From a virus (lineage: Duplodnaviria; Heunggongvirae; Uroviricota; Caudoviricetes), in the IMG/VR virus record IMGVR_UViG_2534681759_000006: a DNA stretch of 41,553 bases. One strand, 5' to 3'. A model generated the notes under the pieces. That model made no database searches. It had not been told where the DNA came from and saw only the letters and a program-made list of their open reading frames with translations. The translations under genes were made by a program, and so were the position numbers. Of the stretch, positions 37,521-38,580 are shown one piece after another. The number at the start of each line of letters is the position of its first letter. The first letter of the stretch is position 1.

Positions 37521-37560
37521 AACCGTAGCACGTCGTATGCAAGAAGATCGTGCTGCGGTT
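37521..37560. repeat. hairpin repeat copy A (CCGTAGCACG tcgtatgcaagaagat CGTGCTGCGG)
   Basis: Near-identical to copy B at 38540..38580; followed by GGTTTATGCTT so it may also terminate pin. Confidence 0.7.
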
Positions 37561-37580
37561 TATGCTTATCACTTAAAGAC

Positions 37581-38354
37581 TCAAAAATTAGGTGAGTAAC
37601 GGACCGGGGACATAGCTCCTTTTTTTCTTAATTCATCTGGTATTTTTTTTCCAAGATAAAGATTTGCTATTTCAGGTGGGGCTTCTCGACCTTCAAAACC
37701 ATAGCGAGAACTTTGTGTTGCCTCAAAGTCCGGATCCTCGTCCCAGTATTTCATCGTAGGGAAATTTTCACGTGTTGATTTGAGCCATTTATCAGCAATG
37801 AAAACCCCTCGAACGATCCCCCTTACAGTAGCAAGAATGACTTCTGCTTGGCTGGCGCGAGAGACATTAATGCGCCAGCTAAATCGAACCGCATCATAAA
37901 GCTCTGAATCCTTTGCACTTCTGTTAACGGAAATCATTAATGCTTTATGATGAAATGTTATGGTTTCGGGTTGATATGTTGCTATCAACTCTTTGACATG
38001 CGCGGCGCCGAATTCATTGCTGCCAGCACCATTCATGATATTCGTTAACCCAGGGTAGGCATCAATAAGTGCTGCTTCAACTTCGTACGCCGTCTTTTCA
38101 TCAGTCATTCCGTGTCGATGGATGACATGGATAACCTCAAGTCCTGCTAACCTTATTTCTCTAATTTGCTTTAGCTTGTTGCTCAGTAACTCGTCATCAT
38201 CAGTCGCTGCCACTTCACCGCGCATATGGGCAAATACGCGGTTACCTTTGCCTTTCCCTACATAGAAGGTGCTTCCGTCCCTCGGATCAATCAATCGGTA
38301 TACATACCAGCCAAGGTGTTCAATTACTCCAGAAGGAAACTCAGTAATATCCAT
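37581..38354 (-). CDS. GIY-YIG nuclease-domain protein (about 257 aa from MDITEF...) with uncharacterised C-terminal domain
   Basis: UvrC-like GIY-YIG motif WYVYRL...[14 protein letters not shown]; lower GC than the tail genes. Confidence 0.7.
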
Positions 38355-38539
38355 TTTGCAATATCTATGAATTATTTGTGAGACGTATATTAATGAACAT
38401 TGCAAGGGCTCACAACCAGTAGTGTTGAGAAAACCATCGGGGAAATGAGGCTAAGCCTTTGAATTTACATAGTATAAAAAAGATACTTTTCCTCATAATG
38501 TGAATTAATTTTATGTTTCGTTTGATGATTGGACCGGTC

Positions 38540-38580
38540 TCGAAACCCGTAGCCACGTCGTATGCAAGAACGTGCTACGA
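38540..38580. repeat. hairpin repeat copy B (CCGTAGCCACG tcgtatgcaagaa CGTGCTACG)
   Basis: Same orientation and loop sequence as copy A; lies in the GIY-YIG gene's upstream region. Confidence 0.7.

Follow-up and report, generated by a model that had tools for sequence, protein, structure and literature searches.

A conserved stem-loop family of lambdoid and e14-like prophage right ends: candidate terminators bounding an accessory-gene slot

In the phage sequence IMGVR_UViG_2534681759_000006 (Caudoviricetes; 41,553 nt, analysed over its whole length and hereafter called the window), a gene for a GIY-YIG endonuclease is flanked by two direct copies of a hairpin, A and B. Judging from covarying stems, both copies are members of one RNA stem-loop family that occupies lambdoid and e14-like prophages at their right end, where the late/tail-fibre (or invertase) genes come to an end on one side of it and the leftward accessory genes lie on the other. 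We consider it reasonably probable that this family represents conserved, mainly leftward or bidirectional terminators, which delimit an accessory-gene slot and additionally offer short homology for cassette exchange, both termination and recombination being read from sequence.

The two direct copies of about 40 bp around the GIY-YIG gene that the initial annotation had reported were found again: they share the exact 17-mer CACGTCGTATGCAAGAA on the + strand (37529-37545 and 38554-38570, 1025 bp apart), are direct repeats and form interrupted hairpins. In a covariance-model search of the window with filters off, copy B scored 56.7 bits and copy A 51.0 bits; no third copy exists in the 41.5 kb, the next match on the + strand reaching 10 bits. 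The elements concerned are arranged as follows:

36966..37520, + strand: pinE DNA invertase (RefSeq annotation of an identical region; Pfam Resolvase and HTH_7; open reading frame (ORF) list)
37520..37561, no strand assigned: copy A, a solo hairpin between the convergent pinE (+) and GIY-YIG gene (-)
37581..38354, - strand: cargo gene, PD-T4-3/CMoRE, a GIY-YIG type IV (modified-cytosine) restriction endonuclease (PADLOC; Pfam LEM-3_GIY-YIG; PMC12923530)
38355..38542, - strand: upstream spacer of the cargo gene, presumed promoter and 5' untranslated region (UTR) (alignment; the promoter is putative)
38543..38584, no strand assigned: copy B, the hairpin SL1 of a two-hairpin module (sequence; covariance-model match)
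38583..38640, no strand assigned: rest of the module, i.e., a second hairpin (SL2) and the tail GTTATCGATTTTG (alignments; covariation of SL2)

A stem of 9 bp with the same loop had been stated for each copy. This is correct for copy B, in which 9 bp and a bulged C (5' arm 38548-38557, 3' arm 38571-38579) close a loop of 13 nt (38558-38570), whereas copy A has a stem of 13 bp with one G.U pair (5' arm 37520-37532, 3' arm 37549-37561) and a loop of 16 nt (37533-37548) consisting of the shared TCGTATGCAAGAA plus GAT. The predicted fold of copy A amounts to -22.5 kcal/mol on the + strand (z -5.4 versus shuffles) and to -16.3 kcal/mol on the - strand, and its tails are U-rich on either strand (UUUAUGCUUAUC on +, UUUCAUUUAUCU on -).

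A query of 53 nt around copy B was compared with phage records and with 5,426 complete Escherichia coli genomes. Matches were obtained in 117 phage records, among them lambda (24162-24205), HK97 and numerous Stx phages, and at 8,892 places in 4,543 of the E. coli genomes (median 2, maximum 8 per genome). All places inspected are prophage right ends or remnants of these (Qin, Rac, the att-lambda region, an O157 remnant), and in every one of them the orientation of the hairpin relative to the tail-fibre genes is the same.

For the analysis of structure, approximately 240 loci were fetched with two independent anchors, one lying outside the hairpin and the other comprising the loop and the 3' arm. 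Across 92 distinct sequences the stem is paired to 93%, compared with 27-47% in slid controls. The same 92 sequences contain 46 compensatory cells versus 12.2 +/- 2.8 in column shuffles (none of 500 reached 46), a figure whose weight for the proposed interpretation is lessened by the origin of the loci, chiefly E. coli and Shigella prophages, and by the cells not being independent events. The family stem has 10 pairs, is interrupted by a bulge and is maintained by compensatory changes, with variants such as CCGCAG/CTGCGG, CCGTAG/CTACGG, CCGCGG/CCGCGG, AGCGGTAC/GTACCGC and GCCGCAGTA/TACTGCGGC. The suggestion of a structured RNA family is thus substantiated by the covarying stems, and a chance origin of the repeat is excluded, mainly because the hairpin recurs in thousands of genomes with such stems.

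Concerning the loop, its consensus TCGTATGCAAGAA exhibits a mean nucleotide diversity (pi) of 0.21, and the two stem arms 0.20 and 0.18. Freely varying parts are the bulged base (pi 0.70, a value that rests on one bulge column and related sequences where it is compared with the loop) and the 5' flank (pi 0.57). The bulge is missing in about 30% of the copies, the ATG of the loop is nearly invariant, and in phages of Citrobacter and Salmonella the stem is degraded and the loop retained. These patterns indicate that the loop is under sequence constraint throughout the family. From its conservation, the initial annotation had deduced a recognition function rather than only termination; the constraint has been upheld by the diversity values, whereas termination, which was set aside there, turned out to be the best-supported role.

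This role is favoured because of the position and polarity of the hairpins, i.e., convergent genes, nearby stop codons and an A-run 5' of the stem. The hairpins are located between convergent genes at a distance of about 0-20 nt from stop codons. On the + strand, the stops ahead of the hairpin are those of pinE (0 nt; its TGA at 37518-37520 abuts copy A, the last base of the stop being the first base of the copy), of other invertases and of tfa (about 18 nt in lambda), and tfa or invertase stops precede the hairpin in lambda, HK97, Citrobacter phage Chris1 and a locus designated L050. On the - strand, the nearby stops are those of the GIY-YIG gene (19 nt), of a methyltransferase gene (8 nt) and, via the module, of dinI. 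At least six A within the 10 nt 5' of the stem, corresponding to a U-tract on the - strand, were counted in 29 of 57 distinct flank contexts, and at least six T on the 3' side in just three of them. Solo copies (copy A and lambda 22563-22609) possess moderately U-rich tails on either strand. As expected for an intrinsic terminator, the hairpin is stable and G+C-rich, with a covarying stem of 10-13 bp and -16 to -25 kcal/mol. Taken as a signature, these features most likely represent leftward, and in the solo copies bidirectional, intrinsic terminators. Copy A would then be a two-way terminator, at which both the pinE mRNA of one strand and the PD-T4-3/CMoRE mRNA of the opposite strand would end, and copy B a leftward terminator that would end the upstream unit and insulate the upstream region of the defence gene. 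Each accessory gene would thereby constitute a separate terminator-delimited unit, and no antisense transcription would be sent into the tail-fibre genes.

There are several observations that weigh against this interpretation. A terminator scan (consensus; loops of 3-8 nt) called neither of the two copies, and for an intrinsic terminator a loop of 13-16 nt is long; in the RNAfold prediction an additional C-G pair forms, which leaves a loop of 8 nt. The module-linked copies possess no T-run on the + strand, and the tail of copy B consists on the - strand merely of GGGUUUCGAG (UUU), for which reason this copy may terminate poorly; on the + strand it has none. Folded alone, copy B adopts in its minimum-energy structure a shifted register (GUCGUA with UACGAC, -20.8 kcal/mol), since its 3' arm variant ...CTACGAC can pair with GTCGTA of the loop, and in the family consensus fold it reaches merely -10 to -13 kcal/mol. 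Furthermore, termination would leave unexplained that the loop is as conserved as the stem and, likewise, that it survives in the Citrobacter and Salmonella phages with a degraded stem.

The second part of the favoured interpretation, the exchange of cassettes, is derived from the sequences found between and beside the hairpins. Two direct copies enclose the following cargo:

GIY-YIG gene: window and loci L048, L078 and L085; spacing 1021 bp
S-adenosylmethionine-dependent methyltransferase gene and a tfa fragment: seven loci; spacing 1049 bp
ClpP-like (SDH-type) protease gene: loci L074 and L104; spacing 1602 bp (Pfam match below cut-off)
ea47: lambda; spacing 1589 bp

In addition, an EcoRII-like endonuclease gene abuts one hairpin copy in two loci (L101 and L056). 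The protein encoded by the GIY-YIG gene matches PD-T4-3 over its full length (PADLOC, E 2.4e-140), which has been characterised as CMoRE, a type IV endonuclease degrading DNA with 5-hydroxymethylcytosine or its glucosylated form (5hmC/ghmC; PMC12923530); by homology, this cargo is a defence gene for a type IV restriction enzyme and not a homing nuclease. In lambda (J02459), the copies at 22563-22609 and 24152-24198 (L005 664-710 and 2253-2299) are direct repeats around ea47. The first is situated directly past the stop of tfa (orf-194) and the second heads the module between ea47 and ea31, a layout that matches the architecture around the GIY-YIG gene of the window. Empty sites, in which the pin stop (TGA) is followed by one hairpin and the module, are present in L118 and L043.

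The breakpoints fall within the hairpin itself. One and the same GIY-YIG cassette occurs in two left contexts, with the 5' arm and loop tracking the context and the 3' arm and rightward sequence tracking the cassette, and the copies in the pin context differ by indels only at the junction of the loop and the 3' arm. At least 15 different left contexts abut the hairpin, homology among loci ending at the base of the 5' stem arm. The flanked cassette is found in 815 genomes, in many of which the match ends at hairpin B. About 140 nt of the spacer (from the start of the cargo gene to hairpin B) are homologous to the spacer of the unrelated ClpP-like cargo in L074, and this common spacer leads to a slot frame of hairpin, variable gene, spacer, and hairpin plus module (plus dinI). 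Recombination or cassette-boundary sites had been proposed for the repeat together with a check by comparative genomics; that the hairpin marks insertion boundaries is borne out by the filled and empty sites and by the breaks inside it, whereas no sign of a dedicated recombinase appeared at these loci.

Being conserved among otherwise unrelated flanks, the hairpin of about 45 bp would serve as short homology for general (RecA) or phage Red/RecET-type recombination. The mobile cassette would have the form 3' half-hairpin, cargo, spacer, 5' half-hairpin and would pass between prophages; such exchange would explain why the hairpin is present twice, on both sides of the GIY-YIG gene in the window and of ea47 in lambda. 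Arguments on the other side are that recombination at the hairpin is suggested by breakpoints only, that the longer conserved flanks, namely pin/tfa to the left and spacer, module and dinI to the right, would be just as usable for the exchange, and that in e14 of strain K-12 (L244 2741-2846) mcrA follows right after pinE on the + strand without a hairpin. The e14 locus had been considered as an empty site and was set aside as uninformative, as it holds mcrA and no hairpin. McrA is another type IV restriction enzyme, such that the e14 slot is functionally analogous to the position of CMoRE. Concerning other sequences to the left of the hairpin, HK97 (L002 2470-2600) retains immediately ahead of it the final approximately 20 nt of a gene for a pin-type invertase (GGGAGATAAATGA), and the HK97 module stops 3 nt short of the annotated sib site; from its sequence, this phage seems to have arisen by deletion from an ancestor that carried pin. 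Rfam IS009 (RF02111) exceeds its gathering threshold inside the tfa coding sequence immediately upstream of hairpin copies (L005 417-615, L006 1028-1226, L008 1591-1794), and IS009 may be a coding region catalogued as RNA.

Rightward of most copies, there is a conserved block ending in ...GATTTTAC, beyond which several unrelated sequence classes follow, such that hairpin and block make up a discrete module of about 100 nt. Its second helix, GGCTGG...CCAGCC, exhibits the compensatory variants GGCTGAT/ATCAGCC, GACTGGC/GCCAGTC and GGCTGA/TCAGTC; in the window, GGCTGG (38583-38588) pairs with CCAACT (38622-38627). The 33 nt of the SL2 interior are strongly conserved, and both flanks of the module are mosaic. 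In the largest right-flank classes, the module is situated 10-14 nt past the stop of a - strand gene ending in ...WESADEWFVH, which belongs to the DinI family (Pfam DinI, E 1e-19) and is found next to the module in about one half of the loci fetched with the anchors. By this arrangement, the module is taken to be the entire 3'UTR of a leftward prophage dinI-like gene in the dinI-linked loci. The other right-flank classes represent deletion derivatives, with the last few dinI codons only (Qin, L074), the sib site of HK97, or lambda b-region sequence, as in the window, where the dinI-like gene is missing beside the module.

Some further observations on the module may be added. A common subtype combines a 1-nt deletion (GAGTTTGAATGAAAATCAGCC) with the compensatory change GGCTGAT/ATCAGCC of the second helix (L159, L161, L164-L166, L189, L193, L194, L200, L224, L238). 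At the start of the module, GCTGGTGA (window 38584-38591) matches the Chi site GCTGGTGG at 7 of 8 positions; this Chi-like sequence is the majority form of the family, and a perfect Chi is found in no member examined. In L050, the positions 8099-10213 contain in compact order a serine recombinase gene (+), the hairpin with module, a dinI-like gene (-) and an integrase gene (-), an arrangement that may constitute a small integrative element or satellite with the same module.

The module gives rise to the main alternative, which is possible, if rather doubtful: SL2 plus SL1 (about 38543-38640, - strand) would be a small RNA (sRNA) or a cis-acting 3'UTR element of prophage dinI-like genes, acting as an Hfq-type riboregulator or as a stability/retroregulation element, with the loop as recognition surface and copy A as a terminator-only derivative. 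It is compatible with terminator activity. The covariation supports both helices, and the loop as well as the SL2 interior are strongly conserved between mosaic flanks. This alternative would also account for the conservation of the loop, which outlasts the decayed stem in the Citrobacter and Salmonella phages. The layout on the - strand (stop codon, stem-loop, terminator hairpin, U-run) resembles that of 3'UTR-derived sRNAs, for which the Klebsiella DinR, processed from the dinI 3'UTR (PMC10907235), provides a precedent, and most copies persist as orphans once dinI is lost. However, the supplements of the papers on Hfq-CRAC (cDNA analysis after cross-linking) in enterohaemorrhagic E. coli and on RIL-seq (ligation and sequencing of interacting RNAs) in enteropathogenic E. 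coli (EPEC) contain no matching sequence, only the core dinI 3'UTR, and the module falls outside every Rfam family. The patterns of G.U versus A.C do not settle the strand, no leftward gene feeds the module of the window, and frequent recombination among prophages could partly account for the conservation. In a wider version, which is put forward tentatively, the module of copy B would represent an RNA family that has so far escaped recognition and is carried by more than 80% of E. coli genomes, namely a dinI-like 3'UTR riboregulator or retroregulatory/stability element whose 13-nt loop is recognised by RNA or protein, the solo hairpins (e.g., copy A) being derivatives with which cassettes of defence genes would pass from prophage to prophage. 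Described sRNAs that were compared with the element were rejected: PasA, PasC and PasD of EPEC are located in the Q/lysis region, PasB (NC_011601 1466261-1466343) has a different hairpin and lies in a prophage without a copy of the element, and svsR lies within cI and is unrelated.

Sites of a dedicated site-specific or single-strand recombinase, which would insert and excise cassettes in the style of integron attC, are an unlikely explanation of the hairpins. Imperfect hairpins with an extrahelical base between cassettes of the same orientation, breakpoints inside the hairpin and a conserved loop sequence would agree with it; yet no recombinase co-occurs with the hairpins across loci, and the short tyrosine recombinase of the window (39892-40548) is missing from the other loci. 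Moreover, about 30% of the copies lack the bulge, whose base varies freely, the RYYYAAC/GTTRRRY boxes of attC are, by eye, not matched at the stem ends, and the cassettes carry their own upstream region.

A protein-coding function of the conserved sequence, at present or in the recent past, is very unlikely. The frames considered are a + frame at 38566-38646, a - strand ORF at 38511-38678 and a mini-ORF starting from the loop ATG. By eye, the substitutions between lambda and the window look three-periodic; ORFs cross the module on both strands, and the loop ATG hardly varies. Against this, 1 nt is deleted within the module in 10 of the 92 distinct copies, none of the frames stays open throughout (the best one in 75 of 92), the start codons vary among right-flank classes, the common polymorphisms are nonsynonymous in the ATG frame, and the compensatory changes fit RNA pairing. 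The + frame is annotated by RefSeq/PGAP, here and in many genomes, as a partial 'capsid protein' pseudogene, which overlaps the non-coding two-hairpin module; this call is probably spurious and propagated by homology.

That the GIY-YIG protein is a homing endonuclease which cuts empty hairpin sites and copies itself into them is highly improbable: free-standing homing enzymes do exist among GIY-YIG nucleases, and both filled and empty sites are present, but the protein is a full-length match to the type IV enzyme PD-T4-3/CMoRE, and non-nuclease cargo (methyltransferase, ClpP-like protease, Ea47) occupies the same hairpin-bounded frame. A chromosomal repeat similar to repetitive extragenic palindromic (REP) sequences or bacterial interspersed mosaic elements, or else a crossover site of the neighbouring Pin invertase, is scarcely credible, for despite the high copy number in E. 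coli and the AAACC at the stem base that recalls Din-family half-sites, the low number per genome and the fixed prophage position do not fit a REP, the true pix sites (35027-35046 and 36885-36904) share only these 5 nt with the hairpin, many copies occur in phages without an invertase, e.g., lambda, and copies A and B are direct repeats, in contrast to the inverted pairs of 26-bp Din-family sites (two TTCTCCCAAACC-type half-sites with a 2-bp core). The initial annotation had itself raised a widespread REP-type repeat; the hairpin is indeed extremely widespread, but it is confined to one prophage context.

Terminators that bound an accessory-gene slot remain the interpretation preferred here. 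The slot belongs to the last 6 kb of the window, which represent a prophage right end with tail genes of the Mu/e14 type and have an identical counterpart in E. coli TW10828 (annotated by RefSeq). From left to right, tail-fibre and tfa genes, the invertible segment (bounded by the two pix sites, which are of the TTCTCCCAAACC type), pinE, the GIY-YIG gene and about 470 bp of non-coding DNA are followed by a gene for an Mrr-type endonuclease, a short tyrosine recombinase gene and a last gene leaving the window. No consensus sigma-70 promoter was called in the spacer at 38355..38542, nor on the - strand beside either hairpin copy. To the right of the module are situated:

38641..38745, no strand assigned: non-coding DNA whose homologue in lambda is the part of the b region at 24.25-24.36 kb, between ea47 and ea31
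38828..39739, + strand: Mrr-type restriction endonuclease, the next cargo (92% DNA identity to ORF1 of the P2-EC67 Z-region cassette)

The similarity of 92% to ORF1 of P2-EC67 includes the flanks of the Mrr-type gene (window 38711-39800), and the P2-EC67 cassette is annotated as bounded by inverted repeats, one to the left and one to the right. The left junction of the Mrr cassette lies within a motif of about 25 nt (GCTATGTRCCAGAAGCGGA), which is also present in lambda at approximately 24.34 kb; its recurrence suggests a second junction sequence. The tyrosine recombinase at 39892-40548 is short (218 aa) and comprises the catalytic domain only. The ORF at 40672-41553 matches in its C-terminal part the PADLOC candidate PDC-M01B (E 6e-15), and there may be more defence-type cargo to the right of the hairpin-bounded slot. 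Near the left end of the window, a tRNA gene (1369-1441; 71.8 bits) is possibly the integration site of the prophage.

A scan of the window at the Rfam gathering thresholds yielded a tRNA only. The Rfam search proposed in the initial annotation, performed on the hairpin region with E values up to 10, gave a weak match to the 3' hairpin of CssrB alone and no family covering the module. A literature search with the sequence of the element produced no matches, and no named lambda terminator at 22.6 or 24.2 kb was found in the literature searched. With the exception of the CssrB tail, the hairpin family, its bulge and conserved loop, the fusion with SL2 as a dinI-like 3'UTR and the flanking of ea47 are uncatalogued in Rfam. 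The same features are absent from the literature searched, whereas terminator-bounded morons and shuffling mediated by stem-loops are of already known kinds. If the interpretation as slot-bounding terminators is right, the hairpin would be a simple sequence landmark for a very common accessory-gene slot of E. coli prophages, usable for the mining of defence and virulence cargo and for the definition of transcription units at prophage ends. It would explain how genes hop between otherwise unrelated phages via about 45 bp of common sequence, and it would correct a routine annotation, as the 'capsid protein' pseudogene of PGAP covers part of the module. That the loop and the adjoining second hairpin are conserved, which this interpretation leaves unexplained, makes a regulatory RNA role directly testable.

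Among known systems, the tI/sib region of lambda likewise contains hairpins near the attachment site that end leftward transcription, as is proposed for the present family, and in HK97 the module abuts sib. The elements differ in sequence, are 3 kb apart in lambda, and the hairpin has no evident extended helix of the RNase III type. Integron attC sites are also imperfect hairpins with an extrahelical base between cassettes of the same orientation; in the window and the related loci, however, IntI is lacking, it is the loop that is conserved instead of the R/L boxes, the hairpins can do without the bulge, and the cassettes bring their own upstream regions.

Concerning sRNAs, DinR of Klebsiella is an Hfq sRNA derived from the 3'UTR of the chromosomal, LexA-controlled dinI, with a Klebsiella-specific seed (PMC10907235). 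As in the related loci, though not in the window, the 3' end of a DinI-family mRNA comprises a conserved stretch and a terminator hairpin; the source is a chromosomal dinI as opposed to a prophage module, which in the window has lost dinI, and the comparison of the two is one of layout. CssrB (Shigella chromosomal sRNA B) was detected as a Northern band of about 180 nt, its 3' end having been assigned by terminator prediction (Peng et al. 2011, PMC3071730). The last approximately 40 positions of its model (Rfam RF02799) represent a member of the hairpin family, so that the Northern band is an indirect experimental hint, the only one, at termination by the hairpins. In locus L008, one of the hairpin copies has a complete CssrB upstream of it. 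In contrast, the window matches the hairpin only (24.5 and 19.2 bits versus a gathering score of 76), and the body of 129-133 nt is missing.

For the PeSL cassettes of T4-type phages, termination and the formation of mini-circles have been demonstrated (Arbiol et al. 2010, PMC2839356). Similar to the present family, they contain stem-loop terminators, short and conserved, which recur between the non-essential genes in a hypervariable region, and recombination between copies shuffles, deletes and inserts genes, leaving cargo between direct copies, as is proposed for the hairpins of the window. Despite this similarity there are clear differences: PeSL possesses a strong sigma-70 promoter, whereas none was detected beside the hairpins of the window, and the present family resides in temperate lambdoid and e14-like prophages, has a conserved loop and bulge position, and includes one type of copy that is fused to a second hairpin.

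Morons of lambdoid phages are accessory genes that have been inserted among conserved phage genes and bring along an upstream region and a terminator of their own, and phage hotspots are in general divided into small terminator-delimited units. The slot described here would share both properties, an accessory gene with upstream region and terminator and a hotspot composed of terminator-delimited units. It differs in that its putative terminators are homologous to each other and to the hairpin of the dinI-like 3'UTR, and thus constitute a repeated boundary sequence.

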